From Bacilli bacterium (GTDB taxonomy: Bacteria > Bacillota_I > Bacilli_A > ML615J-28 > CAG-313): DNA of 64,000 nt. Location of the stretch: contig JAZSNL010000020.1 of the NCBI GenBank assembly GCA_045536365.1, positions 30,463 to 94,462 of the forward strand, given 5' to 3'. Under the pieces are notes generated by a model. It did no database searches and was not told where the DNA came from. It saw nothing but the letters and a program-made list of their open reading frames with translations. Each line of letters opens with the position of its first letter. Position 1 is the stretch's first letter. This document shows positions 3,961-52,655 of this stretch, piece by piece. The position numbers were made by a program, and so were the translations under genes.

Positions 3961-4359
3961 ATGAATAGTTGTAAAAGTTATCAAACAAAACAAAAAAATA
4001 TTATTCATTCTCTATTATTAGAATATCAAAATACTGATTTAACAATAGAAGAAATTATTAATATTTTAATTATTCGCCAAACTCCTGTTGCAAAGGCAAC
4101 TCTATATCGTTGTTTAGATTCCTTTATGGATTTGGGAATTGTTAAAAAATGGAAATTGGATAATAAAACATCTTATCAATATATTGGTGAAGATGAATCT
4201 CAATTTAAATTAAAATGCGAATGTTGTGGGAAACTAATAAAAGCAGAAATGCCAGTTTTAAATAAAGTAGATAGTGCAGTTACTAGTAAGTACGGTTTTC
4301 ATATTGATATGACTAAATCAGTATTATACGGTAAATGTGAAGAATGTTCGGAGAAATAA
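3961..4359 (+). CDS. zur: Fur-family transcriptional regulator, probably zinc uptake regulator Zur
   Basis: 132 aa; winged-helix N-term, C-terminal CxxC...CxxC (CECCGK...CEEC); heads a Zn ABC importer operon. Confidence 0.65.
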   Translation: MNSCKSYQTKQKNIIHSLLLEYQNTDLTIEEIINILIIRQTPVAKATLYRCLDSFMDLGIVKKWKLDNKTSYQYIGEDESQFKLKCECCGKLIKAEMPVLNKVDSAVTSKYGFHIDMTKSVLYGKCEECSEK

Positions 4360-38874: not shown

Positions 38875-41800
38875 ATGAAGAAAATTTTTATTATAATATT
38901 AGTTATATCGCTAATATTAAACAGTATTCCGTTTGCACCACTAGGAAAATTACTAGCAGCGGAATCAAATTCAATTGAGGAAACAATAGTTTCAAATAAT
39001 ATGGAGGGTTCAGATGAAATTGAATATGAAATTGAATCATTAAGAGAACCTAATTTAAAAGTATTTAAAAGAAAAGATGGATTAATAGAATATAACTATT
39101 ATGAAGAAAATGTTCATTATTTAGAAGATGGTATATATAAAGAATATGATGTTTCTTTTAATGAATCAAATAGTTCGTATTCTAATACTGTAAATGGATA
39201 TGAAGTAGTGCTTCCCAAGAATTTAAAAAAGTCTAATATTATATTAAGACATCAAGAGGATGTTTTGAAAATAAAATATTTAAGTAATACTTCAAGTAAT
39301 TCCTCATCTAAAAAAATAAAAGAAGAAAAAGAAAATAAAAAAGATGTAATTACTACAAAGTCTAAAGTAGAATATAAAAATGTTTTAAAACATTCAATTA
39401 TTGAATTAATCCATACACCTACAGGATTAAAAGAAAATATTATATTAGAAAAGTATGTTAAAAATTATAGTTTTAGTTATATAATTGAAACTAGTTTAAA
39501 ATTAGTAAATGAAAATGATACTTTATATTTTTATAATGATTATGAAAAAGAAATATTTAGATTTAATCCTTATAATATTGTAGATAGTCAAAATAGGATA
39601 TCATATGATGTAGAGTTAAATATATCAATTACAGAAGAAGGTTACTTAGTAGATGTTATACCAAGTGATGAAGTATTAAAAGAATTTACTTATCCAATAA
39701 CAATTGATCCAGTAATTGAATATTCGAGTTCTACAATAGCCAGCAATATAAAAACTAAGTATTTCAGAAAAAATTTCAATGGAACAACACCAGGAATTAA
39801 AATAGAAAAATATGTTAATACTTTCCAAAATGCAGATGGTACATTTGGTAGTGAAGATATTTCTACTCTTACCATAATGGAGATAGATGAAGATATATTG
39901 GATGATAATCTTAATGTAGACACAATTAAATTTGCAAAATTAAAATTTAGGATTAAATCTTCAACACAGGATAATTCATATGATATAGCTGTAAATAGAA
40001 TAACGAGATTCTATGTTGGTGATGTGCCTTTTATTTCATATCCATATGATAATATAGATGGATACACAAATTATGAAACAAAGTCGATAGGAACTATGAA
40101 AAGAGTTGAAAACGCGTATGAACTCGATTTAACAAATGTAATCAAAGAAACAAAACATAACACAATGGTGTTAGAACTTACTGCAAAAAACATACCTAAT
40201 AATGAAGAAAATGTTATTTTATATGATTCTTCTTATACAGATAATAGTCAGAGACCTATGTTAACAATAGCATATATGGACAGCATGGGATTAATTGACT
40301 TTTTAACTTATCATACAGTAACATCAGGTAATACAACAGCTTACGTAAATGATTGTTTTGGTAATTTGGTCGTTGAACAAACTGATTATTTATCAAATTC
40401 AGAAAAAATATCATTTGATATAAGTCATTATTATAATATATCTTCTTCTACTACATCGGATTATGATGTAGGATATGGAAGAGGTATGACTTTAAGTTAC
40501 CTTGAAAGGGTTGTTCCAGAAACGTTAAATACTGAATATTATTCTGTTATTGAATCAACAGGTAGAAAAAAGTATTATAAAAAAGGAGCTATTACTCAAA
40601 ATGGATTTACCTATGTTAGTGAAGAGGGAGATGATGAATACTTAATAGTAAATTTAGCATCTTCAGTACCATATAAAAAAGTCATTCAAGAAAAATATGC
40701 GTATTGTTATGATAATGAAGGATATTTAGTAAAAATAATGGAACGCTTTACTCTGACTACTTTTATAGAGATCACTTATAAAACTACAACATATAGGGGT
40801 AATAAATTAATAGATGAAATAAAGGATTCTTCTAATAACTACGCAAAATTTATATATGAAAATAATCACTTATCAAAGATTCAAATATATAAAGCTACAT
40901 ACGAAGGAGAAAATGTTATAGGATATGAAATATCACAAACTAATAAATATGAATATGATAGTTCATTTAGAATGATAAAAACTTTATATTATAAAGGAAA
41001 TGAAGAAATTCTATTAGGTAAAGAAGAATATGAATACAATACAACAGATGATACATTATTAAAAATAGAGAGTTATAATTATAATGGAACTGAATATATT
41101 TTCATATCAAATATGGAGTTTTTATATTTAAATGAACAAGTAGTAGAATATTCTTCTCTTTTAGGTAGTAACAAAGAAAATGAAACTACTATGAAGATGT
41201 ATATTGAGTATGGAGATAGAACAACTACATTCACTAATAGCCTGGGACAAAGCACAAAATATTTATTTGATTATTTCGGACATACAAAAACAGTAATTGA
41301 TAATTATGGTAATACAACACATTATAAATATGCAAATTACAATAATGAACTATATAAGGATAATCCAAATTATGTTTTGAAACATCAAATTGAGGAAGTA
41401 TCAAGTCCTGTGAATTTAGGTTATAATTTAATTGATAATCATTCATTTGAAGAAGGAGAAAACCATTGGAATATATATTCTGGGGATATAGTGTATACTT
41501 CTGCATATGGATTAAAAGCATTGAAAGTAGATTTATCAAATAGTAATGAGAATACCGTTACAGCAAACCAAAAAATTAGTGTACAGACAAATAAAGTATA
41601 TACCCTTACCGCATTTATTAAAGGAAGCGGTGATATTTTGATAGTATCAGATAATGAAAATTATACTGTTTCCCAAAGCGAGTTGACTGAAACTACTGAT
41701 GATTATTTTTTATATAAAAAAACATTTAGTGTAAGCAGCATAGATCCAGATGAAGAATATGCAGAAGTGTATATTAATTTATGTACAAAAGAAACAGATC

Positions 41801-44800
41801 AATTTTCTGAACAAGTATACTTTGATCAAATAATGATAGATAAAAATAATATTGATACAATATACAATATGTTAATTAATCCATCGTTTGAAGAAAACAA
41901 TAGTTGGAGTGGAGGACAAAGGATATTAAGAACTTCTGACCAATCAATGTTTGGTAATTATGAAATGAAAGTGAGTGGTAACTCAATAGTTCATCAAGAA
42001 TTTGATGGTGTTCATATTCTAAAAGATACAACTATTACCATAGGTGGATTTGTAAGAACAAATGGAACAAGTGTACGTTTAAGAGTGCAATTTTTGAATT
42101 CAGAAACAGGATCAATGTCTAATTCATATGTAGTTCAATTTTACCCATATTTAACAGATTATCAATTTAATCTAAGTGAGTTTTCAGTAGAAGATGAATT
42201 TAGTACTGAATATTATGATGTCGTTTTCTTTGATATTATTAATACGGGAGAAATTGATTGTTATGTTGATAATTTAATATTAACATATGATTTATATGAA
42301 ATAAAATATGAATATAATGAACTTGGTTATCAAACTAAAAGCATATATGGTTCTTCAGTTACGTCAATAGAATATAAGAGTGATAATAGAACACCGGTAA
42401 AAATAACAAAAGATAATAAAGAATTATCATTAGATATACAAACATTCTCTACATCAATAGAATTTGATAATGTTAATATAACTGAAAATAAAAACTCATA
42501 TAATCAAGTAACATCTACTATAATAAATGATAAGCAAGTTAGTGAGACAGAATACGGTTATAATAATCAATATGTTACTTCACAAACAATTATCGGCAAT
42601 ATAGTAGAATATTCTTATGATTATTTATATGGTCTTTTGAACTCTGTTGAATATTCTGATGGTAATACCATTCAATATCAATATGATGATTACAATAGAT
42701 TATTACAAACAAGTTTCACTAAAGGAAAAATTAGTTATTTATATGATGATTATGGTAATATTGAAAAAATAGAAATACTAGGACAACTTGGCAATATATT
42801 AATGAGTTATTATTTTGAATATAATGAACATTTTGATATAGAAACTATATATGTAGGAAAAGATACAAATAAAGATAGAATCATTAAATATGAATATTTG
42901 TATTTAACATTATCAAATGGTAATGAAGTATATACTGGATTAATTAATAAAGTTATTAAAGGAAATAATGATGATAATTATGAAAGATACGAATACGATA
43001 AAGAATTTAATTTATATAAAACATATATTAAAAAGCCAAATATAGAAGAAACATTAATATCAGAGTTGTTATATGATAATTACAAGAATTTATCATTTTA
43101 TAAAGATTATGTTGATAACAAAATATATATGTATAATTATGATAAAGAGAATAGATTAATAAGTTGTCTTGATGAAAAAGGTAATGGTGTAAAATATCAA
43201 TATTTAACAATAGACAGTGACCAAAAAGAAAAAGTAATAGTTGAATATATTGTTGATAATACTGTTTTAACGACTATGACGTTTATATATAAAGAAGATG
43301 AATTAATAGAATATTTGACAAATGATATAAAGTCAAATCCTCAAGCAATTATTGACGATTATGATAGAGTGACTGAAAAACTATTAACCACAACGGATAA
43401 TAATGAATTGATAAAATATATTTATCAATACAATGAAGACAAAATCAGTCAATTAGATGGTTATGAAATAAAAATAGGTAATGATACATTAAAATATGGA
43501 TATTCATATGACATATATGGAAATATAATTCAAATAATAAAATATAAAAATAATGTAGAATTTGAAAAAATAGAATATCAATATAATAATAATCAAGAGC
43601 TATTACAAGAAAAAATTACAAGAAATAATGTAATAGTATTAGTAACAAATTATACATATAATACTATAGGTAACATAACATCAATAACAAGAACTACAAA
43701 ACAAGGAGAATATAGTAATTTACCATATAAAATCGAATTTATGTATGATACTAATGTTAGAATGAAATTATTATACTATAGAGTATATTTACATGGTTCT
43801 TTATCTTATACAACATACAACATTACATATGATGAATTTGGAAATATAAGACATGATGGTAAAAACTTGTTTATATATGATATAGATAAACTTATAAATA
43901 TTCAAAATGATAATAATAATATAATTTATGATTATAATAGTGATGGAGTACGCATCTATAAAAAAATAATAAATTTAGATGACACATATGAAGAAGTACA
44001 TTATGATGTATCAGGAGATATCATTTTAAAAGAAACAAGATATGATTCTTCAACAAACACAACAACATATATAATATATATTTATGATGAATCAGGAGTA
44101 GTAGGATTCAAAGTAGGAACAGATATAAATAACTTAACAACATACTATTTTGTAAAAAATCTCCAAAATGATATAATACAAATTATTGACACAAATGAAA
44201 ATGTTGTGGTAGAATATACTTATGATGCGTATGGCAATGTATTTGTATCAGGAACATTATCAAATACAATAGGAAAACTTAATCCATATAGATACAGAGG
44301 GTATTATTATGATGAGGAAACTCAGCTTTATTGGGTATCCTCAAGGTATTATTCACCAGAATTATGTAGATTTATAAGTCCTGATGATGTAGAATATCTA
44401 GATCCAGAATCATTAAATGGATTAAACTTATACTGCTATTGTGTGAACAATCCTATTATGTATATTGATCCTTATGGAAATGATGCAATTTTAATAACTG
44501 AATATTTACCAATGGGGTTACCTATTGTAGGTCACTCTGTTTTATTCGTTCAAGATGAAAATGGAGAATGGTGGATTACTGAATATTCAGGTTCTTTTCC
44601 TGATAAGAGTACTGCTCATGTTATTTGTAGAAAAGCTACACAGTCGGATTGGGAAAGATTTAAGCCGCAAAAAGGGTTTTGGAACTCTATTAAAAATCTG
44701 TTTCAAATTTCAGGGAATTCATCAGTTTATTTAAAAGGTGATTATTCTAACAGTTTAAGTAAAGCACAAAGCTTAAATGGTTTGGATTTTGGTGGATATC

Positions 44801-45006
44801 ACGCATTTACAAATAATTGCTTGCATTACGTTAAATCGATTTTAAGTGAAACAAATATTGATTCAGTTACGAATAATTATTTTAAGAATTCAAAAATTTT
44901 TATTCCATGCATGTTTACAAATATGACTACATTATGTAGTGTGATTGATGATGTAATTGATACTGGAAATAAAGTTTATAATTTTATAAAAGGTATTTTC
45001 AACTAA
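38875..45006 (+). CDS. Sec-secreted RHS/YD-repeat polymorphic toxin (WapA-like), 2043 aa, with variable C-terminal toxin domain
   Basis: N-terminal signal peptide; two CBM4/9-like beta-sandwich regions (~41.4-42.3 kb); many YD repeats (YEYDSSFRMIKT, YSYDYLYGLLNSVEYSDGNTIQYQYDDYNRL, YTYDAYGNV); RHS core end RYRGYYYDEETQLYWVSSRYYSPELCRFISPDDVEYLDPESLNGLNLYCYCVNNPIMYIDPYGN; ~175-aa C-terminal tip. Confidence 0.85.
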   Translation: MKKIFIIILVISLILNSIPFAPLGKLLAAESNSIEETIVSNNMEGSDEIEYEIESLREPNLKVFKRKDGLIEYNYYEENVHYLEDGIYKEYDVSFNESNSSYSNTVNGYEVVLPKNLKKSNIILRHQEDVLKIKYLSNTSSNSSSKKIKEEKENKKDVITTKSKVEYKNVLKHSIIELIHTPTGLKENIILEKYVKNYSFSYIIETSLKLVNENDTLYFYNDYEKEIFRFNPYNIVDSQNRISYDVELNISITEEGYLVDVIPSDEVLKEFTYPITIDPVIEYSSSTIASNIKTKYFRKNFNGTTPGIKIEKYVNTFQNADGTFGSEDISTLTIMEIDEDILDDNLNVDTIKFAKLKFRIKSSTQDNSYDIAVNRITRFYVGDVPFISYPYDNIDGYTNYETKSIGTMKRVENAYELDLTNVIKETKHNTMVLELTAKNIPNNEENVILYDSSYTDNSQRPMLTIAYMDSMGLIDFLTYHTVTSGNTTAYVNDCFGNLVVEQTDYLSNSEKISFDISHYYNISSSTTSDYDVGYGRGMTLSYLERVVPETLNTEYYSVIESTGRKKYYKKGAITQNGFTYVSEEGDDEYLIVNLASSVPYKKVIQEKYAYCYDNEGYLVKIMERFTLTTFIEITYKTTTYRGNKLIDEIKDSSNNYAKFIYENNHLSKIQIYKATYEGENVIGYEISQTNKYEYDSSFRMIKTLYYKGNEEILLGKEEYEYNTTDDTLLKIESYNYNGTEYIFISNMEFLYLNEQVVEYSSLLGSNKENETTMKMYIEYGDRTTTFTNSLGQSTKYLFDYFGHTKTVIDNYGNTTHYKYANYNNELYKDNPNYVLKHQIEEVSSPVNLGYNLIDNHSFEEGENHWNIYSGDIVYTSAYGLKALKVDLSNSNENTVTANQKISVQTNKVYTLTAFIKGSGDILIVSDNENYTVSQSELTETTDDYFLYKKTFSVSSIDPDEEYAEVYINLCTKETDQFSEQVYFDQIMIDKNNIDTIYNMLINPSFEENNSWSGGQRILRTSDQSMFGNYEMKVSGNSIVHQEFDGVHILKDTTITIGGFVRTNGTSVRLRVQFLNSETGSMSNSYVVQFYPYLTDYQFNLSEFSVEDEFSTEYYDVVFFDIINTGEIDCYVDNLILTYDLYEIKYEYNELGYQTKSIYGSSVTSIEYKSDNRTPVKITKDNKELSLDIQTFSTSIEFDNVNITENKNSYNQVTSTIINDKQVSETEYGYNNQYVTSQTIIGNIVEYSYDYLYGLLNSVEYSDGNTIQYQYDDYNRLLQTSFTKGKISYLYDDYGNIEKIEILGQLGNILMSYYFEYNEHFDIETIYVGKDTNKDRIIKYEYLYLTLSNGNEVYTGLINKVIKGNNDDNYERYEYDKEFNLYKTYIKKPNIEETLISELLYDNYKNLSFYKDYVDNKIYMYNYDKENRLISCLDEKGNGVKYQYLTIDSDQKEKVIVEYIVDNTVLTTMTFIYKEDELIEYLTNDIKSNPQAIIDDYDRVTEKLLTTTDNNELIKYIYQYNEDKISQLDGYEIKIGNDTLKYGYSYDIYGNIIQIIKYKNNVEFEKIEYQYNNNQELLQEKITRNNVIVLVTNYTYNTIGNITSITRTTKQGEYSNLPYKIEFMYDTNVRMKLLYYRVYLHGSLSYTTYNITYDEFGNIRHDGKNLFIYDIDKLINIQNDNNNIIYDYNSDGVRIYKKIINLDDTYEEVHYDVSGDIILKETRYDSSTNTTTYIIYIYDESGVVGFKVGTDINNLTTYYFVKNLQNDIIQIIDTNENVVVEYTYDAYGNVFVSGTLSNTIGKLNPYRYRGYYYDEETQLYWVSSRYYSPELCRFISPDDVEYLDPESLNGLNLYCYCVNNPIMYIDPYGNDAILITEYLPMGLPIVGHSVLFVQDENGEWWITEYSGSFPDKSTAHVICRKATQSDWERFKPQKGFWNSIKNLFQISGNSSVYLKGDYSNSLSKAQSLNGLDFGGYHAFTNNCLHYVKSILSETNIDSVTNNYFKNSKIFIPCMFTNMTTLCSVIDDVIDTGNKVYNFIKGIFN
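44236..44440 (+). repeat. RHS core-end repeat (copy in full-length gene)
   Basis: ~205 nt nearly identical to 47375..47580; weaker copies at 45822..45990, 48851..49012, 51962..52013. Confidence 0.7.
44479..45003 (+). other. C-terminal toxin tip: permuted papain-fold (NlpC/P60 superfamily, PPPDE/LRAT-like) candidate domain
   Basis: His-containing VGHSVLFVQDENGEWWITEYSGS followed ~100 aa later by YHAFTNNCLHYV (cf. NC[NE]HF of PPPDE/LRAT). Confidence 0.35.
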
Positions 45007-45028
45007 ATTTATATTGAAGGAGGCATTT

Positions 45029-45676
45029 ATGAAAAAAATAATAAATAAATTGGGACTATTGATATTTTTATTTATTTTTATCGTTAGTGGATGTTCTATA
45101 AAAAGAAAAATAAAATTTGAAAATGAACAATTAATATATAAAGACACTTGTTATTCACTAGATGAAAATTATTTACCTATCGTTTGTGAAGGAGACATGA
45201 TTGAAATAGATAGAATTTTAGGAATATTTGGATTGCACAAATATTATATTAGTTCTTTAGATGTTGATAGCAATATTATTTATGACAATAAAAATCGATT
45301 TTACAAAGATGGCTTTCTACTTCCAAATGATAATAAAGATAATATTTCTAAAATATATATGACAATGAGTTTTAAAGGGAACTTTGATGATGAACTTCAA
45401 AAAACAGATGTTATACAATTTAATAATTCAGATTCAGTTTATTTAGATGACATAATTAATGAATGCCCAATAGATGAAGTTAAAATAGATAACAAATATA
45501 GTTTCTGGTTATTTATTATATATGAAAATTATTTATTTATGTCTATTCAATATGATATATACTATATGAACAATGAAATTTATTTTACAAAATATTATGA
45601 TAATGAACATTTATATAAAGTAAATGATAATTATAAAAAATATTTTGAAGAATCAATTATAAGAATATTGAAATAA
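45029..45676 (+). CDS. putative cognate immunity lipoprotein of the RHS toxin
   Basis: Immediately downstream (22 nt) of toxin stop, GAAGGAGG RBS; lipobox IVSGCS. Confidence 0.5.
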   Translation: MKKIINKLGLLIFLFIFIVSGCSIKRKIKFENEQLIYKDTCYSLDENYLPIVCEGDMIEIDRILGIFGLHKYYISSLDVDSNIIYDNKNRFYKDGFLLPNDNKDNISKIYMTMSFKGNFDDELQKTDVIQFNNSDSVYLDDIINECPIDEVKIDNKYSFWLFIIYENYLFMSIQYDIYYMNNEIYFTKYYDNEHLYKVNDNYKKYFEESIIRILK

Positions 45677-45813
45677 AAAATATAAATAGTTAGTTAAAAG
45701 TAGGCCGGTAAAGATGGTTATCTCTAATAGCCACCTTACAGGCTACCTAACTAGTTATTTTAGACATTATTTTATAAATTTATTATGTCTGAATATTTAG
45801 GACACCATTCGAT

Positions 45814-46392
45814 ATGATGTTGAAACTCAGCTTTTTTTGGGTATCCTCACGTTACTATTCGCCTGAATTATGTAGGTTTATAAGTCTTGATGATATTGAA
45901 TATTTAGATCCAGAATCAGTAAATGGATTGAACTTATGCAGCTATTGTGTGAACAACCCTGTTATGTATGTTGATAGTTCAGGAAATTTTCCTGTTATAG
46001 CATTTATTATAGGCGGAATTGCTGTAGGAGCGGTTGCTTCGGTTATTGTGGTTCTAGGAGTGAAAAATTGTACTTCTAAAAAAAATCCATTAAAAGAAAA
46101 TGATAAAATAAAAAATTCAGAAGGTAAAAAAAAGGATGATTTATTGGCGGATTTTTCTGATACAATTATGCCTGAATATAATCCAAAAGGTATGGCTAAT
46201 AATATTAATACCATTATAACGAATGATATAGTAAACTATCCAGCTAATTCATTGCCTATACAACCCTATGGAGCTGGAGGTTACGAAATCCCTAATGGTG
46301 ATTATAGTAGGTATAGCGGTGGAAGAGCTTTCTTTGATTCAACTTACGAAGAAGATTTATTTGATGTTATATTAAGTCTAAACATATGGTGA
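45814..46392 (+). CDS. orphan RHS C-terminal toxin cassette 1 (core-end remnant + alternative tip with TM helix)
   Basis: WVSSRYYSPELCRFISLDDIEYLDPESVNGLNLCSYCVNNPVMYVDSSGN is homologous at nt and aa level to 44331..44476; own ATG; 1-nt indel versus parental frame upstream. Confidence 0.6.
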   Translation: MMLKLSFFWVSSRYYSPELCRFISLDDIEYLDPESVNGLNLCSYCVNNPVMYVDSSGNFPVIAFIIGGIAVGAVASVIVVLGVKNCTSKKNPLKENDKIKNSEGKKKDDLLADFSDTIMPEYNPKGMANNINTIITNDIVNYPANSLPIQPYGAGGYEIPNGDYSRYSGGRAFFDSTYEEDLFDVILSLNIW

Positions 46393-46446
46393 TAAACATT
46401 CAAGTTTTCACTATGTTATAATTAGCCTATAGAAAAGGAGTAAAAT

Positions 46447-47337
46447 ATGAAAAAAAGATTCTTAATGATAATCATGATACTGTTAATAATATCATGTTCT
46501 GGATGTGAAAATAAGAAATTAGATTTAGAAACACTATATGAAAAAAATGCTAAAGTAGCAACAAGTTATTTTCCAGGATGGGGTGCAGATGATTATAAGT
46601 GCGAATTATTTATCTTCGAACCTGAAAATGCTACTGATTTTGAACTTGGACTTTGTTCTCCATATAATTTAGATGGTGTAGAAAAAGTTCTATATGTTAA
46701 GTATGAAAGAACTGATGAGATTCCATTTGTTGTTGCTTTACAATATAAATCAGTTAGACTTGCAAAAGAAGCCTATGAATTATATGGTTCGCAAAAATAT
46801 TTGCGAGAAGCAAATATTTTAGCACTTCCGATTACTCCTGCGTATATGTTTATATATGGACGCTATATAAAAGTTGATGGATATTATTTAAGTCCTGATG
46901 GTGAAGCTTTATTATATGATGGTCAAACACTAACAAGAACTGATATCGTCATACCAGAAGGTGTAAAATGTGTAGTAATGTGGAGTTTATTTTCAAAGAA
47001 AGTTAAAACTATTAAATGTAATGATGAGTTAGAGGTTTTATATTGTTGTTCGCTTGGTTATCTTGATGCACTAGAAAAAGTAGAATTAAATGATGGATTA
47101 AAAGAAATTGGCGGAGAGTGCTTTATCATGCATAATTTAGAATATATCGTTATTCCAAAAAGCGTTGAGTTAATTGGTGCTGAAGCATTTCAAAATGTAA
47201 CGATTTATTGTGAAATAGAGGAAAAACCTATAGGATGGCATAAAAATTTTGCAGGAGAAAATTGTAAAGTCTATTGGGGAGGAACATGGAAATATGTAGA
47301 TGGAATTCCTCGACCAAACAGATGGATAGAAAGATAA
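46447..47337 (+). CDS. lipoprotein with BspA-type leucine-rich repeats (LRR_5); putative immunity protein for cassette 1
   Basis: Lipobox ISCSGC; repeats LEKVELNDGLKEIGGECF / LEYIVIPKSVELIGAEAF. Confidence 0.5.
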   Translation: MKKRFLMIIMILLIISCSGCENKKLDLETLYEKNAKVATSYFPGWGADDYKCELFIFEPENATDFELGLCSPYNLDGVEKVLYVKYERTDEIPFVVALQYKSVRLAKEAYELYGSQKYLREANILALPITPAYMFIYGRYIKVDGYYLSPDGEALLYDGQTLTRTDIVIPEGVKCVVMWSLFSKKVKTIKCNDELEVLYCCSLGYLDALEKVELNDGLKEIGGECFIMHNLEYIVIPKSVELIGAEAFQNVTIYCEIEEKPIGWHKNFAGENCKVYWGGTWKYVDGIPRPNRWIER

Positions 47338-47374
47338 TAATTAAAATCGTAAAATAACTAATAAATATGTACAC

Positions 47375-47580
47375 AATGTATTTATATCAGGAACATTATC
47401 AAATACAATAGGAAAACTTAATCCATATAGATACAGAGGGTATTATTATGATGAGGAAACTCAGCTTTATTGGTTATCCTCAAGGTATTATTCACCAGAA
47501 TTATGTAGATTTATAAGTCCTGATGATGTAAGTTATCTTGATCCAGAAAGTATCAATGGATTGAACTTATATGTGTACTG
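47375..47580 (+). repeat. RHS core-end repeat (orphan cassette 2 copy)
   Basis: see 44236..44440. Confidence 0.7.
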
Positions 47581-48136
47581 TGGAAATGATCCCGTTAATA
47601 AGTATGATCCTAGCGGGCATAGTGCAATTTTAGCTAATTTAATTGCGAAGGGAATTTTAGCTATAGATACAATTGCAGAAACTGCTATATTGATGAATTC
47701 AGACAAATATAAAGCTGAGAATGTTTATCATGTTAATCCATCAACTGGTGAGGGAAATGTACATATTCCTAATTCTGCTGCATTTAATAACCCAATAGCT
47801 CAATTAATTTATTCTAATTATCTATATGAAAATGTAAAGAATAAAGATGGAAGCAATTTTTTTACAGGTGATCCTTATGATATTGTTGGTGAATGGCAAG
47901 CACATAATTTTGCGGCTAATTTAACAGGTTCATTAATGGTATTGAGTTTTATTCCTTTAGCATCATTATCAAATGGAGATTATTTTTGGTCAAAATTATA
48001 TAACGCACACAGTAGAAGTGTTCATACTGATATAGGTCCAAATATAGACTCTGAAAAAAGAGGAATAGTTAGAGTTGTATCAAAGATTTATAAATGGATT
48101 AATAAAATTAAAAGCTTTGATATTCTTAATTGGTAA
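47378..48136 (+). CDS. orphan RHS C-terminal toxin cassette 2 (no ATG; in-frame homology from 47378, ORF-track start 47561)
   Basis: VFISGTLSNTIGKLNPYRYRGYYYDEETQLYWLSSRYYSPELCRFISPDDVSYLDPESINGLNLYVYCGNDPVNKYDPSGH; nt 47375-47580 nearly identical to 44236-44440. Confidence 0.6.
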   Translation, partial: VFISGTLSNTIGKLNPYRYRGYYYDEETQLYWLSSRYYSPELCRFISPDDVSYLDPESINGLNLYVYCGNDPVNKYDPSGHSAILANLIAKGILAIDTIAETAILMNSDKYKAENVYHVNPSTGEGNVHIPNSAAFNNPIAQLIYSNYLYENVKNKDGSNFFTGDPYDIVGEWQAHNFAANLTGSLMVLSFIPLASLSNGDYFWSKLYNAHSRSVHTDIGPNIDSEKRGIVRVVSKIYKWINKIKSFDILNW

Positions 48137-48162
48137 TTGTATATTAAAGGAGTAGGGATCAT

Positions 48163-48702
48163 ATGAAAAAAATAAAGTTAATTGCATTATTAATTTTTTC
48201 TGGATTTATAGTTACATTGATATTCGGATTTTTAATCGATATTGATTACTCAAAAAACGTCATAAAAACAAGTGATAAATCGCTTTATGAGATGAATGAA
48301 TATTATTTTTTACCTAACTATAATGAATTTGAATATAAAGAAAATGTTACCGGGTTTTACACATATGATTCCTCTAATACACTTTCTGGAGGAAGTGTTT
48401 CTTATGTATTAGAATTACAATTTGCAACTAAAAAAGTCTATAATGAATTTTTAGAATATGAGTACACAAGATATGAATATGATAGTAATTCAATCATTTT
48501 AAAAAATAATTATGAATGTTATTTGTGTTTGAATGAAGATATTACTCAATATTATTATGGTGAATATATGCCGTATGCGTTAGGAATGTTATGTTTAAAT
48601 GAAAAAGATATAAAAATTAGATATGTATACTATGTTAATATAGAACATTCCATAGATAATAAATTTAATGATGTATTTCAAAATACAAATTGTACTTGGT
48701 GA
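48163..48702 (+). CDS. membrane-anchored/exported protein; putative immunity protein for cassette 2
   Basis: N-terminal TM/signal anchor; follows cassette 2 by 27 nt with AGGAG RBS. Confidence 0.45.
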   Translation: MKKIKLIALLIFSGFIVTLIFGFLIDIDYSKNVIKTSDKSLYEMNEYYFLPNYNEFEYKENVTGFYTYDSSNTLSGGSVSYVLELQFATKKVYNEFLEYEYTRYEYDSNSIILKNNYECYLCLNEDITQYYYGEYMPYALGMLCLNEKDIKIRYVYYVNIEHSIDNKFNDVFQNTNCTW

Positions 48703-48850
48703 ACGTATTGATTTTAGAAAGAGCATAGGGAGAATATTATTTTATAATATTTCTCCGAGTGCTTAATTATGTAAATTGGATACCAATTTCATTACTAACA
48801 TATTATAATTAGGATATAGTTATTATGAGGATACTCGTAATAGCCCTGTT

Positions 48851-49498
48851 GAAACTCAGTTATTCTATTGCAACTCTAGATATTATTCACCTGAACTTTG
48901 TAGGTTCATAAGTCCAGATAGTATTGAGTATTTAGATCCTGAAAGTATCAATGGATTGAACTTATATGCGTACTGTGGAAATGATCCCGTTAATAAGTAT
49001 GATCCTACAGGTCACATCGCGATTAGTACAATTATTGGAATAATTCTTGGTATAGGTGCTTTGGCGGCAACCGCTAATGATATTTATCAAATTGCAAGTG
49101 GAAATGTGTATGTAGATATGAATAAAACAGATAATGAAAATGTTCATATTGAAAATTCCTATAAAATACTAACCCCTTGGATGAGATATGGTTATAGTTT
49201 CTATTTGAATCATTTTAATCCTAATACTAAAGATGTTATTCAGGGAAGTACAGCAGGAGTTCAATTTGAATGGGAATTGCATAATTATGCTGCTTGGCTG
49301 GGTTTTGGTGGAGAGCCAGCTAAACATCTTGATGTTGGAAAAACTATATTTGCGGATGGGGAAGCTCATCCATTAAGGGATAAAGATGGTGATATCACAA
49401 AAGAAGGTGTGATGTCACTAGGAATGAGGATAGGTTATATTTTATCAGGTAACCCTATATATTGGATTCCGGATTTAATTATAAATGGAGGATTTTAA
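48851..49498 (+). CDS. orphan RHS C-terminal toxin cassette 3 (no ATG; frame open from 48809, ORF-track start 48956)
   Basis: ETQLFYCNSRYYSPELCRFISPDSIEYLDPESINGLNLYAYCGNDPVNKYDPTGH then unique ~160-aa tip; 48956-49012 almost identical to 47556-47612. Confidence 0.6.
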   Translation, partial: ETQLFYCNSRYYSPELCRFISPDSIEYLDPESINGLNLYAYCGNDPVNKYDPTGHIAISTIIGIILGIGALAATANDIYQIASGNVYVDMNKTDNENVHIENSYKILTPWMRYGYSFYLNHFNPNTKDVIQGSTAGVQFEWELHNYAAWLGFGGEPAKHLDVGKTIFADGEAHPLRDKDGDITKEGVMSLGMRIGYILSGNPIYWIPDLIINGGF

Positions 49499-49625
49499 AA
49501 TGAAAAAGATATGCGTATTACTTTTAACAATATTAACTTTGCTTTTAACTTCCTGTGGAGAAGACACAACACGATTAGCAAAAGATGAATTTTCGAAATA
49601 TTATAATGGAAGAAATGAAGTTGTT
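49412..49625 (+). repeat. toxin-3 tail/imm-3 start repeat; second copy at 50893..51100
   Basis: ~85-90 % identical over ~210 nt including RBS and lipoprotein signal peptide coding. Confidence 0.65.
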
Positions 49626-50357
49626 TTAAATTATTTAGATAATCTTTACTTTGAAAATTATATCCTTAGTTTAAGTGATTTGATAGAAAAGAGTGAATTT
49701 AATAATGGTTTGATTATAAAACAAGATAAATTCTTTTTTTCAACCTCTACAGAAAATTCAATGTATGATTTCACTTTAAATATTTATGAGGCAAATTTAC
49801 AAGGCACGAATGTAAAAATGATTTTTTCCAAAGATGGGTATAAAACTCATCCTTGGGTCTATGCTATTGATGAAATGTTTTATGTGGAATTTTATTCAAA
49901 TAATGCTTTTGATTTAAAAAGTAAATTAATTGATAAATATACAATATCTACAAGAATTTATGAGAATGTTGCTAGTGGAGAGGATTGTTCTTTATCTGAC
50001 TATTTTCAAAGTGACTCTCAAAGTAGATACAGTATTGAAGTAGTAGAAAACATATCTCCTCAAGAACATGGTGAATTTATTATTACTGACTTAGAAAATG
50101 GAATAACTAATATTATAGATGATGATTACTTAAAAGATACGATTTATATTGAGTCTATGGAAAAATTTAATTATAGTCCAATGAGATTTGATATATCAAA
50201 TGACAAGATTTTATTAACATATGGAATAGGTGCAGGAGATGGATGGAATAATGCGCATTTGATATTTGAATATGATTTTAATTCGAATAAATTAAAATAT
50301 CAATTACTTGCATTTCCAGATGATTTGATGAATGTAAAAATTATATACATTGGTTAA
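49499..50357 (+). CDS. lipoprotein; putative immunity protein for cassette 3
   Basis: ATG 49499 6 nt after GGAGGA lying in the toxin's last codons; lipobox LLTSCG. Confidence 0.5.
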
Positions 50358-50807
50358 ATTTTAAATTCTCGTGTACTAATAAAAACCAAACAAAACTCAA
50401 AATATTTGACATTCAAGAGAAAAAGTAATAGAACCAAAGTTATTTTGGTAAAACAATTGCTTTTGATTTTTATAATATAGATGAAGTAATATTGTTTGAG
50501 AATATTATTAATTAATATTACTTTTAGGAGACACTTGGATACGAAGATGATTATTACAAACATAATTAATAATTTTGTAGACTAATATAAAAAATATCAT
50601 TATTAACAAGGGTGGAACTGAGTAATATCAGTTTCATCCTTTCTTACATTTAGTGGGAAAGAAGCGAAACCTAGGTATTCTAGTTGTCGCAATAGTCGAA
50701 AATGCAATTTGTTGCATTTTCCTTATCCTGCCTCTAAAATAAGCAAATTTTCAACACTTTTGAGTTAGATATTTAAATTTAATATTTTTGTTTTTAGTTG
50801 ATTAATT

Positions 50808-50836
50808 TTGTATTAATATAAAAAATGTGGTATAAT
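50808..50836 (+). promoter_or_regulatory. extended -10 promoter, followed by perfect 9-4-9 palindrome (50849..50870)
   Basis: TTGTAT-17-TGgTATAAT; palindrome TAATTATCC-ACAA-GGATAATTA lies just downstream of the predicted start. Confidence 0.45.
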
Positions 50837-50881
50837 CATTATGTGAAATAATTATCCACAAGGATAATTAAGATTATGACG

Positions 50882-50975
50882 TCGAGTAATGTCATTAGAA
50901 TGAGGATAGCTTATATTAGGTTTGGTAACCCTATGTTTTGGATTCCGGATTTAATTGTGAATGGAGGATTTTAAA
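50882..50975 (+). pseudogene. internally deleted remnant of a cassette-3-type toxin (only last ~25 codons retained)
   Basis: ...MRIAYIRFGNPMFWIPDLIVNGGF* matches the tail of 48851..49498; 5' junction fused directly to this tail. Confidence 0.55.
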
Positions 50976-51818
50976 TTGAAGAAGATATGCCTATTATTTT
51001 TAACAATATTAACTTTGCTTTTAACTTCTTGTAGATAAGATACAACGCAATTAGCAAAAGATGAGTTTTCGAAATATTATAATGGGAAAGACGAAGTTGT
51101 CTTAAATATTGAAGACAATCTTTATTTTGAAAATCATATTTTAGAGAGTGAAAGTTTAAAAAATTCATATGGTTCTATAGTTTTTCACGAAAACTTAATT
51201 TATTATGTATCAATTAATAGTTTAAAGAAAAAATATAGAAATGAATTTATAAACATTTATACCTGTGATTGCTATGGCGAAAATACAAATATTATTTATT
51301 CAAAAGAGATAAATACAAATAGTAATATTACATTAAAAACAAATAAAGACTCTTATTATATTGAATACAAAAAAGAAAAGTTGATTTATATTGATAAATA
51401 CACAATATCAACAGGAATTTACGAAAATATTGCTAGTGGCAAAGATTGTAGTCTATCTGATTATATGCCAAAAGAAGAACAAAGCAGATATAGTATTGAA
51501 GTAATAGAAAATATATCACCTCAAAAACACGGAAAATTTATTGTCACTGATTTAGAAACAGGTTTATCTAATATAATAGATGATGAATATTTAAGGAACA
51601 CAATATATATTGAGTCTATGGAGAAGTTTAATTATAGTCCTAAAAGAGTTGATATATCTAACGGACATATTTTATTAACATATGGAATAGGTGCAGGAGA
51701 TGGATGGAACTATCCACATTTAGTTTTTGAATATGATTTTGATTCAAATACATTGGAATACAAATTATTAGCATTTCCATTTGATAGCGTGCCTATAGAG
51801 ATTATCTATATTGGTTAA
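50976..51818 (+). pseudogene. paralog of immunity lipoprotein 49499..50357 inactivated by a single nonsense codon (TAA 51036..51038)
   Basis: LKKICLLFLTILTLLLTSCR*; frame then stays open to 51818 and is ~70 % identical in its C-half to imm-3 (ORF-track piece 51381..51818). Confidence 0.6.
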
Positions 51819-51961
51819 AAAGTCGATATTATAGAAACAGGATAAGAGTTGTGCTCAAATTTTGGGTACAACTCTGATTCCGCAAATGGGATACCCATTT
51901 CAAGTTTATAAGAATGAAGAAGCAATATTATCTATATATTTGTTAGTTAATATTTAAGGAT

Positions 51962-52070
51962 AACCAAGATTATGACGGCGAAACTCAGTTATTTTATTGC
52001 AACTCTAGATATTATTCGCCTGAATTATGCATATGGATTTACCATTTTCTCTGCGGGAGGCAATTTGGGT
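51962..52070 (+). repeat. fourth RHS core/toxin junction remnant (truncated after ~30 codons)
   Basis: GAAACTCAGTTATTTTATTGCAACTCTAGATATTATTCGCCTGAATTATGC = ETQLFYCNSRYYSPELC, then stop; same junction sequence as cassette 3. Confidence 0.55.
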
Positions 52071-52337
52071 AGAAAAGATTGGTATTTAGACGAGAGTAAA
52101 GAAAGATCGATATATTTTAGTGGTTTTAATTTAGAGGTTTCTATAGAAATATCAGAAGATATGAAAAGTGAAAAGGATTTGTTTAGTGTGGCTTGCAGTA
52201 TTTTTAAATTTGGATATGATGGAAAATTTATTGATTTTAACATAGCTTTAGGTCTTACACAAGAATATATTAATATTGATATTGTTGCTATTATTCGAGA
52301 GATAGAAGACGTTTTAAAAAATGGGAGAAGAGTATAA
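51972..52337 (+). CDS. hypothetical ORF (+1 frame relative to RHS remnant); possible orphan immunity/cargo gene or spurious
   Basis: 121-aa ORF overlapping the junction remnant in a different frame. Confidence 0.25.
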   Translation: MTAKLSYFIATLDIIRLNYAYGFTIFSAGGNLGRKDWYLDESKERSIYFSGFNLEVSIEISEDMKSEKDLFSVACSIFKFGYDGKFIDFNIALGLTQEYINIDIVAIIREIEDVLKNGRRV

Positions 52338-52655
52338 GTGGTAAATAATAAGGAAATAAGATTACGTATAGAACTAGGTATATTAAAAAAAAGATATTGC
52401 GCATTATGCGGGTTAAAACTTAACAGAAAAATTATATGTATAGATCAGATATATGTATATAGACCCTTTTGCCTACCTTTTTTAAAAGAGAAAAAAGCGA
52501 AGAGGATAGTTGTTACTCCGGTATATTATTGTAGAAAATGCAACTATATGATAGATTATGATTCGCAAAAAAAAATATCAATTAAACAAAAAGAGAGCAA
52601 TTCTTATATTTTGTTAGAAGGTAACAATTTAATTAAAAAATTAAAAATAAAATAA
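52338..52655 (+). CDS. Cys-rich (CxxC x2) small basic protein, island cargo
   Basis: CALCG...CRKCNY zinc-ribbon-like. Confidence 0.35.
   Translation: MVNNKEIRLRIELGILKKRYCALCGLKLNRKIICIDQIYVYRPFCLPFLKEKKAKRIVVTPVYYCRKCNYMIDYDSQKKISIKQKESNSYILLEGNNLIKKLKIK

Follow-up and report, generated by a model that had tools for sequence, protein, structure and literature searches.

In the rhs-CT/rhsI orphan arrays of enterobacteria (E. coli, Salmonella, Dickeya and Yersinia), an rhs gene is followed by fragments that start in the core, pass a DPxG motif and continue into a new C-terminal toxin tip (CT) and an immunity open reading frame (ORF). Such arrays of dissociated tips result from C-terminal displacement (Jackson 2009, PMC2935791), and the orphan toxins have neither initiation nor export signals, whereas the immunity genes can still be expressed (Poole 2011, PMC3150448). 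An orphan can be activated through recombination with the main gene (Koskiniemi 2014, PMC3967940). Gram-positive WapA loci of S. suis carry undeliverable ‘truncated duplications’ (PMC12704120), and orphan arrays of loci for contact-dependent growth inhibition (CDI) hold up to eleven modules, which have been proposed to serve as an immunity repertoire and a recombination reservoir (PMC3150448). Here, we describe a comparable arrangement in a 64,000-nucleotide (nt) stretch of a Bacilli bacterium assembly (GCA_045536365.1, contig JAZSNL010000020.1, positions 30,463 to 94,462; hereafter the window, whose own numbering is used throughout), in which a full-length RHS/YD-repeat toxin gene (38875..45006) is trailed by fragments of an RHS core. 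The locus is very probably a chromosomal, WapA-like RHS polymorphic-toxin locus with a trailing array of displaced tip/immunity cassettes. The layout is well known in other bacteria, and its occurrence here extends the classical orphan-tip rhs architecture to an uncultured or little-studied low-GC gut Firmicute.

Downstream of the main gene lie five more core-end fragments, three with complete tips and intact exported partners and two degraded; like all features described in detail below, they are on the forward strand. An earlier sequence-only reading had proposed an array of three ORFs (45814..46392, 47378..48136 and 48851..49498) ending at 49498. All three are open at these coordinates, but the array does not stop there: a fourth cassette (50872..50974) and a fifth (51968..52030) lie beyond, and the whole reaches about 52.4 kb. 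Using the main core end as a tblastn query, remnants map to 45835-45987, 47375-47620 and 48812-49015, with the fifth fragment at 51971-52039. Orphan 1 (O1, 45813..46392) consists of a core remnant (45813-45987) and tip 1 (45985-46389); orphan 2 (O2, 47375..48136) of an 82-codon core remnant (47375-47620) and the 171-amino-acid (aa) tip 2 (47621-48133); and orphan 3 (O3, 48812..49498) of a core remnant reading GYSYYEDTRNSPVETQLFYCNSRYY…DPTGH (48812-49015) and the 160-aa tip 3 (49016-49495). Against the NCBIfam model TIGR03696 (Rhs_assc_core, curated cutoff 32.5 bits) the remnants score 42.8 (O1), 72.3 (O2) and 59.7 bits (O3), far beyond chance, over 51, 82 and 68 aligned residues. The claim that each ORF begins with the end of the RHS core is thereby confirmed, although the proposed extent of 40-60 codons fails for O2 (82). 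The remnants terminate at the DPxG demarcation motif (DPxG or DSSG before the tips), and at the DNA level the core fragments form repeat families (D1, D2 and D5).

The orphans have neither shell nor export signal, and in-frame stops lie upstream of them. As the sequence-only reading had noted, cassettes 2 and 3 lack an ATG: in O2 there is no ATG, GTG or TTG from the upstream stop to a TTG at 47561, and in O3, which has an in-frame TAA just upstream, there is none before a TTG at 48956, both of these TTG codons lying inside the core motif NGLNLY. The two cassettes are thus probably silent. Public gene calls (for example P0001; ORFs of 180 and 191 aa) begin at exactly these two TTG codons, which are almost certainly gene-caller artefacts and not real starts.

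Each tip is followed by a distinct exported protein with a strong Shine-Dalgarno sequence, in agreement with what had been proposed. I1 (46447..47337), the immunity candidate for tip 1, is a lipoprotein with a lipobox and an AAAGGAG Shine-Dalgarno sequence and contains BspA-type leucine-rich repeats (PF13306 LRR_5, 3.3e-9). I2 (48163..48702), the candidate for tip 2, has an N-terminal transmembrane anchor and likewise AAAGGAG, and I3 (49500..50357), the candidate for tip 3, is a lipoprotein with the lipobox LTSC, whose Shine-Dalgarno sequence GGAGGA falls within the last codons of O3. The main tip is followed by a further lipoprotein candidate, I0 (45029..45676), with the lipobox VSGC and the Shine-Dalgarno sequence GAAGGAGG; its exact sequence was found solely on this NCBI contig. 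The four proteins are unrelated to one another, and in searches of Pfam, NCBIfam and PDB sequences the only match for any of them was LRR_5 in I1. Tips and partners stay together elsewhere. I2 homologues with 26-96% identity follow tip-2-family ORFs in five contexts (the window and contigs L012, L020, L022/23 and L001), and downstream of tip 1 an LRR_5 lipoprotein is found in three (the window, L006/L008 and L019). Because tip and partner families remain linked across independent contigs, we read the linkage as the signature of candidate cognate toxin/immunity pairs.

Apart from one weak lead for the main tip, none of the four tips has a match in Pfam, NCBIfam or PDB sequences. The main tip, tip 1 and the tip 2/3 family share no similarity, so that the tips are unrelated as far as the main tip and tip 1 are concerned; the same had been claimed for tips 2 and 3, but these share a segment of 68 aa with 37% identity (E 2e-6 in a tip-only comparison). 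A word-indexed search for tip 2 returned 20 relatives, each of 270 aa or less and each beginning inside a core. A profile built from these relatives and tip 3 found 211 representatives among 1.84 billion, with the domain C-terminal in every case, and all ten longer family members tested carry RHS_repeat (PF05593). The tip profile searches suggested by the sequence-only reading thus place the tip 2/3 family at the C-terminus of RHS-repeat proteins elsewhere, while none of the tips has a Pfam model. Tip 3 is 64% identical over 159 aa to the C-terminus of P0131, an RHS protein of 2177 aa, and tip-3-like tips also occur on the full-length proteins P0124, P0149, P0174 and P0114, with RHS_repeat in those tested. 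Tip-2-like tips were seen solely on RHS fragments (P0103 and P0104), none longer than 536 aa. Tip 1 had 17 relatives, each of 213 aa or less in that search, and elsewhere it occurs solely on core fragments of up to 226 aa. Judged by these relatives, the tip families appear to be RHS C-terminal domains in other genomes.

Five residues of the tip 2/3 family (S54, E93, W94, H97 and N98 in tip 2 numbering) are 96-99% conserved across 165 members and form an S…E-W-x-x-H-N signature. Since they are near-invariant, catalysis is suggested, and the signature hints at an enzyme with a putative activity rather than a simple pore. The AlphaFold2 model of tip 2 is confident (predicted local distance difference test, pLDDT, 90.5) and has no PDB neighbour. 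As a lesser novelty, the domain could be an undescribed, RHS-restricted and envelope-acting enzyme fold with a Ser/Glu/His/Asn signature. Tip 1 combines a transmembrane helix, a variable linker and a conserved C-terminal motif of ~45 aa (GRAxFDSTYEEDLFDVILSLxIW); its model is unusable (pLDDT 44). A hydrophobic N-terminal helix is present in tips 1 and 3, while tip 2 is below the hydropathy cutoff yet modelled as a long helix. Since all four partners are lipoproteins or anchored in the membrane, and since tips 1 and 3 carry hydrophobic helices, the toxins most likely act at the outer face of the membrane or in the cell envelope, not in the cytoplasm. Some S. suis CTs are active only when sent outside the cytoplasm (PMC12704120).

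The main gene encodes a protein of 2043 aa, recognized by TIGR03696, hydropathy and direct reading. It starts with MKK and a hydrophobic segment (aa 1-28, Kyte-Doolittle 2.4 in a simple hydropathy test and not a dedicated predictor) and is predicted to bear an N-terminal Sec-type signal peptide. Residues 1783-1868 match Rhs_assc_core with 70.6 bits directly before the variable tip, and YxYDxxGN-type repeats can be seen by eye in the translation. Pfam gave no match on the whole protein and only a weak RHS_repeat match on its last third (E 0.91); for the shell (38875-44220) both RHS_repeat and TEN_YD-shell stay below the Pfam threshold, leaving the TIGR03696 core as the only identification. Because Pfam fails to recognize the shell, we regard the protein as apparently a very divergent RHS, with a shell that is divergent or compositionally biased. 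A segment of P0079 that is 43% identical to the shell has a PF25023 match. P0079 had been considered as a full-length RHS protein with tip 3 and was rejected, given an in-frame stop 100 nt into its contig and a shell only 43% identical. The demarcation motif can be read directly in the main gene as LDPES-x18-DPYG, with DPYGN at 44467-44481, and corresponds to a DPxG-x18-DPxG-type C-terminal autoproteolysis motif with putative cleavage. In the N-terminal 1200 aa, Pfam and NCBIfam detect no cell-wall-binding or anchoring domain, though a divergent one could be present. The main tip (44479-45003, 175 aa) follows DPYG and shows a His…NNCLHYV arrangement with a weak Pfam LRAT (NlpC/P60-type) match at NNCLHYV (E 0.07), which suggests a permuted NlpC/P60-LRAT-type cysteine hydrolase or acyltransferase. 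Its relatives, three among 5.8 billion proteins plus a locus in a Faecousia metagenome-assembled genome (L005), are too few for a profile or structure; that locus, with 28% identity, was the sole match in a scan of genome contigs.

Several metagenome contigs carry the same TrmD protein as the window and show the locus in other states. Two of them, L009 and L010, match the window colinearly at 98.6-98.8% identity into its RHS gene. A third, L007, diverges inside the shell, with 95.8% identity up to 40647 and 68.7% after 41200, so the shell itself appears to be mosaic between strains. L006 (7693-10820) and L008 (4440-7570) represent the same locus as window positions 38875-52531, with both flanks matching at 98%, but continue after 38908, which is 34 nt into the gene, directly at 44135. 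This removes 38909-44134, that is, 5.2 kb of shell, and leaves the start of the RHS gene out of frame after the deletion; the main tip and I0 are absent as well. In both contigs the core end is fused in frame to tip 1, forming a 226-aa ORF without the T insertion found in O1 (see below). Behind it come I1, 84 nt from the beginning of the O2 core remnant and further small, immunity-like ORFs, and at 52531 the match to the window resumes. Comparison with the window indicates that L006 and L008 hold an immunity-only remnant of the locus. L012-L014 contain O2-I2-O3-I3’, with O3 frameshifted and I3’, a paralog of I3, intact, and two more orphans next to a different flank. That L012-L017 are the same locus as the window is not supported, as their right flank (YjzC, CotE and LysM) is unmatched in the window; they may be a second rhs locus or come from another strain. 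On L020 (9446-13449), L021, L022 (7146-11977) and L023, orphan/immunity cassettes occur, and no full-length RHS gene lies within 10 kb of them. The arrays of L020-L023 sit among housekeeping genes (ackA, the arg operon and dnaE) as orphan-only islands in other genomes. On L001 (888-12033), an RHS gene with its immunity gene and a tip-2-type orphan with immunity gene lie beside a holin, nucleotidyltransferases, PcfJ and an N6 methylase, a mobile-element-like context that is unlike the chromosomal housekeeping context of the window.

The recurrence of these structures bears on the possibility that the core repeats are an assembly artefact, created by the collapse or mis-joining of separate rhs loci. 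Repeats of 170-260 nt at 60-86% identity are of the kind that breaks short-read assemblies, and most of the related metagenome contigs do end inside or near them. However, the junctions recur in independent assemblies of different samples (O1-I1-core remnant in L006 and L008; O2-I2-O3-I3’ in L012, L013 and L014), cassettes at this identity are distinct enough to be assembled unambiguously, and both flanks are single-copy housekeeping DNA. Hence, we give an artefact next to no credence. Taken together, core remnants, tip families, pairings, translation signals and the rearrangement of related contigs at the core repeats support the orphan RHS C-terminal toxin cassettes proposed by the sequence-only reading.

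The two additional cassettes are decayed. Cassette 4 (50872..50974) is an internally deleted orphan: what remains is the core scrap DYDVE and, running on from it in a different frame, the final 30 codons of a tip-3-like tip, which end in RMRIAYIRFGNPMFWIPDLIVNGGF before the stop. The cassette lies in the DNA repeat families D4 and D11. It is followed by I3’ (50961..51818, 59% aa identity to I3), which has an in-frame TAA (51036-51038) directly after the lipobox cysteine where the copy on contig L012 has CAA. This nonsense codon makes I3’ a pseudogene in the window. Cassette 5 is reduced to the core scrap DYDGETQLFYCNSRYYSPELC (51968..52030), broken off after SPELC and 92% identical in DNA to the O3 remnant (family D5). 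A chimeric ORF of 121 aa (51972..52337) reads this scrap in the +1 frame for its first ~19 codons; the remainder is unique, without a signal peptide, and a singleton in an exact-protein look-up. It may be what is left of a truncated gene for a cytoplasmic immunity protein. In the DYD codons (gATTATGAc or gATATGATg), the same ATG in the +1 frame recurs at 45814, 50876 and 51972 and opens three ORFs, namely O1, where it is productive via a T7 insertion, a 32-aa ORF in cassette 4 and the 121-aa ORF in cassette 5.

We propose that the array grew by repeated C-terminal displacement, in which incoming DNA carrying a core end, a tip and an immunity gene would recombine into the core and push the older tip downstream. 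The orphan toxins would then be silent spares, as initiation signals, a signal peptide and a shell are missing. Transcription from the rhs promoter probably covers the immunity genes together, as far as a terminator-like hairpin at 50608..50641 (14 pairs and a T-rich tail), the sole one found from the start of the RHS gene to cassette 4, and the immunity proteins of the orphan array would guard the cell from neighbours deploying matching toxins. Terminator-like hairpins were found before rhs (38750), after I3 (50608) and in the right flank (53057), and none lies between cassettes 0-3. RecA-dependent recombination of the main core end with the core remnant of an orphan could put a spare tip back into service. 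For this, O2 would be by far the best substrate: the main core end (44235-44391) and the O2 remnant (47374-47530) are identical at 155 of 157 nt, with a longest exact run of 89 nt, and on account of this identity O2 is the only orphan well suited to homologous re-arming. Recombination at O2 would remove the main tip, I0, O1 and I1 and yield an RHS protein with tip 2.

Several observations weigh against this reading of the locus. The longest exact runs shared with the main core end are only 16 nt for O1 and 11 nt for O3, and simple homologous re-arming of these two is therefore unlikely. The cassettes are not ordered ‘newest first’, given that the most main-like core remnant is in O2 and not in O1. 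No contig was found with an orphan tip on an intact main RHS of this species; in L006 and L008 tip 1 does sit on the core end, yet the shell is deleted. Co-transcription of the immunity genes is an assumption, since a promoter scan is uninformative in such AT-rich DNA (149 found versus 136 expected). Decay is ongoing, as shown by cassettes 4 and 5, the nonsense codon in I3’ and the frameshifted O3 in L012. Finally, the ratio of nonsynonymous to synonymous substitution rates (dN/dS) between the window and same-species contigs, which rests on small counts (nonsynonymous : synonymous), is 3.3 for the O1 tip (12 : 1), 1.1 for the O2 tip (16 : 4), 1.9 for I1 (29 : 4) and 0.38 for I2 (7 : 4), compared with 0.06 for the upstream ATPase (3 : 13) and 0.22 for the rhodanese (3 : 3). 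Values of about 1 or higher fit relaxed constraint as well as diversifying selection.

Decay and high dN/dS, together with the complete loss of the RHS body in L006 and L008, are what would be expected if the orphans were non-functional debris, that is, neutrally decaying relics of past tip replacement, most of whose partners have no role in fitness. We consider this unlikely. In DNA of ~25-30% GC the O2 tip still reads through 171 codons and the O3 tip through 160 without a stop, and none of the four immunity ORFs has lost its strong Shine-Dalgarno sequence or its signal peptide. The same pairs persist across contigs at 26-66% protein identity with conserved motifs, which implies long-term purifying selection on the families. 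Islands that hold only orphans, without an RHS gene within 10 kb, are as expected of immunity genes that are useful on their own, and elevated dN/dS is likewise usual in toxin/immunity arms races. Hence, displaced cassettes with retained immunity genes remain the preferred reading.

The 1-nt indel that the sequence-only reading noted at the junction of cassette 1, together with an ATG of its own, is a +1 insertion of a T: the main gene reads TTTATT where O1 has a run of seven T (T7, 45832-45838). The insertion puts the upstream YDVETQLF out of frame and brings the ATG at 45814 into the core frame, so that O1 has a start in frame with core end and tip 1. This raises the possibility that the orphans, or at least O1, are translated in the producing cell and form toxin-antitoxin-like addiction or growth-control modules with their partners. 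An independent contig, L018 (P0088), has an identical O1 leader, T7 run and start (MMLKLSFFW) with a tip only ~68-75% identical, and the +1-frame ATG recurs in cassettes 4 and 5. There is also precedent, as internal promoters and start sites express Rhs-CTs, both main and orphan, in S. Typhimurium in a toxin-antitoxin-like manner (Starsta et al. 2020, PMC7043789). However, exported or membrane-anchored partners could not neutralize a cytoplasmic toxin in the classical type II manner, and for O1, the only orphan to which this minor alternative would apply, it is disfavoured because I1 is an exported lipoprotein. In addition, O1 has only a weak Shine-Dalgarno sequence (AGGA, at a spacing of 11 nt), a start codon is missing from O2 and O3, and tip 1 occurs without the insertion in L006 and L019. 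We regard toxin-antitoxin-like modules as highly improbable.

Displacement into the core is also not the only way in which cassettes could have moved. The orphans are preceded by a leader of ~140-160 nt with two hairpins. In the copy at 51830..51967, a hairpin with a 14-bp stem and the hairpin AAATGGGATACCCATTT are followed by an AT-rich stretch up to the core remnant; further copies lie at 48712-48800 and 50860-50885 in the window, at 11165-11252 on L020 and at 895-1026, 3968-4107 and 4951-5082 on L012, where they are 90-94% identical to each other. Copies of the O3-type leader in the window, L012 and L020 share 92% identity, even though the I2-family proteins next to them are only 43% identical, and the pairing of the second hairpin is kept between two leader types by one compensatory change. 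The leader has no Rfam match. Furthermore, orphans with different tips begin at one and the same codon of the core (DYDVETQL or a GYxYEDTRNSPVETQL variant). A fixed boundary and a shared leader are predicted by the circular-intermediate model (Jackson 2009, PMC2935791), and the cassettes could thus be mobilized as discrete leader-bounded units by an integron-like or circular-intermediate system for RHS tips. No recombinase is found near the array and no mobile-element backbone in the window, and we judge this to be very unlikely compared with repeated displacement.

Compared with the enterobacterial arrays, the similarities go beyond the layout: most fragments lack initiation signals while immunity genes are ready for translation, tips, here those of the tip 3 type, occur on full-length rhs genes elsewhere, and the repertoire varies between strains. 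In contrast, the host is of Gram-positive type, the signal is Sec-type and there is no PAAR, VgrG or type VI secretion system (T6SS) context here. The immunity candidates are lipoproteins or membrane-anchored, whereas those of enterobacteria are cytoplasmic; none of the tips has a Pfam model, and one orphan has gained an ATG by a +1 insertion. With WapA of Bacillota and S. suis the locus shares an apparent YD-repeat protein with a predicted signal peptide, a polymorphic C-terminal toxin and an adjacent candidate immunity gene, and as in S. suis wapA, truncated duplications of core, tip and immunity gene that cannot be delivered lie downstream. However, neither a domain for binding the cell wall nor a sortase or SecF-like partner was detected by Pfam and NCBIfam searches, which took in the flanking ORFs, RHS_repeat reaches only E 0.9 on the highly divergent shell, and tips and immunity proteins are unrelated to characterized WapA toxins by Pfam, NCBIfam and PDB searches. 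The cdiA-CT/cdiI arrays resemble it in having fragments that start from a demarcation motif and immunity genes that can be expressed, but CDI uses CdiA/CdiB two-partner secretion and a VENN motif and is restricted to Gram-negative bacteria. Orphan immunity islands, or acquired interbacterial defence clusters, have reportedly been described in Bacteroidales by Ross et al. in 2019. In a similar way, L006/L008, L020/21 and L022/23 keep cassettes without a nearby full-length RHS gene, consistent with a defence-only role. Unlike the Bacteroidales clusters, the cassettes here retain toxin fragments and core remnants, and the window has no recombinase or mobile backbone.

The locus opens no new question; its value lies in candidate toxin/immunity pairs and in correct ORF annotation. 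It supplies toxin families without a Pfam model or solved relative (tip 2/3, tip 1 and the main tip), and the exported lipoprotein partners point to envelope-acting toxins in Gram-positive contact competition. Set side by side with it, the related contigs show natural stages in which an armed locus decays into an immunity-only island.

The array region has a GC content of ~25-30% and lies between the trmD-rhodanese genes on one side and cvfB on the other. No tRNA is present in the window, and Rfam yields no family that reaches the gathering threshold there; within the array, no credible match appears at E<=1. Among 20 flanking ORFs scanned, all housekeeping, transport or unassigned, there is no secretion system, sortase or recombinase. 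Pfam and NCBIfam find no PAAR/VgrG-binding or LXG/WXG N-terminal domain of the kind that marks an Rhs effector delivered by a T6SS or a type VII secretion system. The host is a low-GC, spore-forming Firmicute known mostly from metagenomes. The left flank comprises nusA, infB, uvrC, RNase J, def, a YlbD coat protein, malQ, rpsP, rimM, trmD and the rhodanese gene, and the right flank cvfB, a major facilitator superfamily transporter, a Mur ligase and tyrS. Judged by comparison with contig L006, the island ends on the right somewhere from 52337 to 52531.

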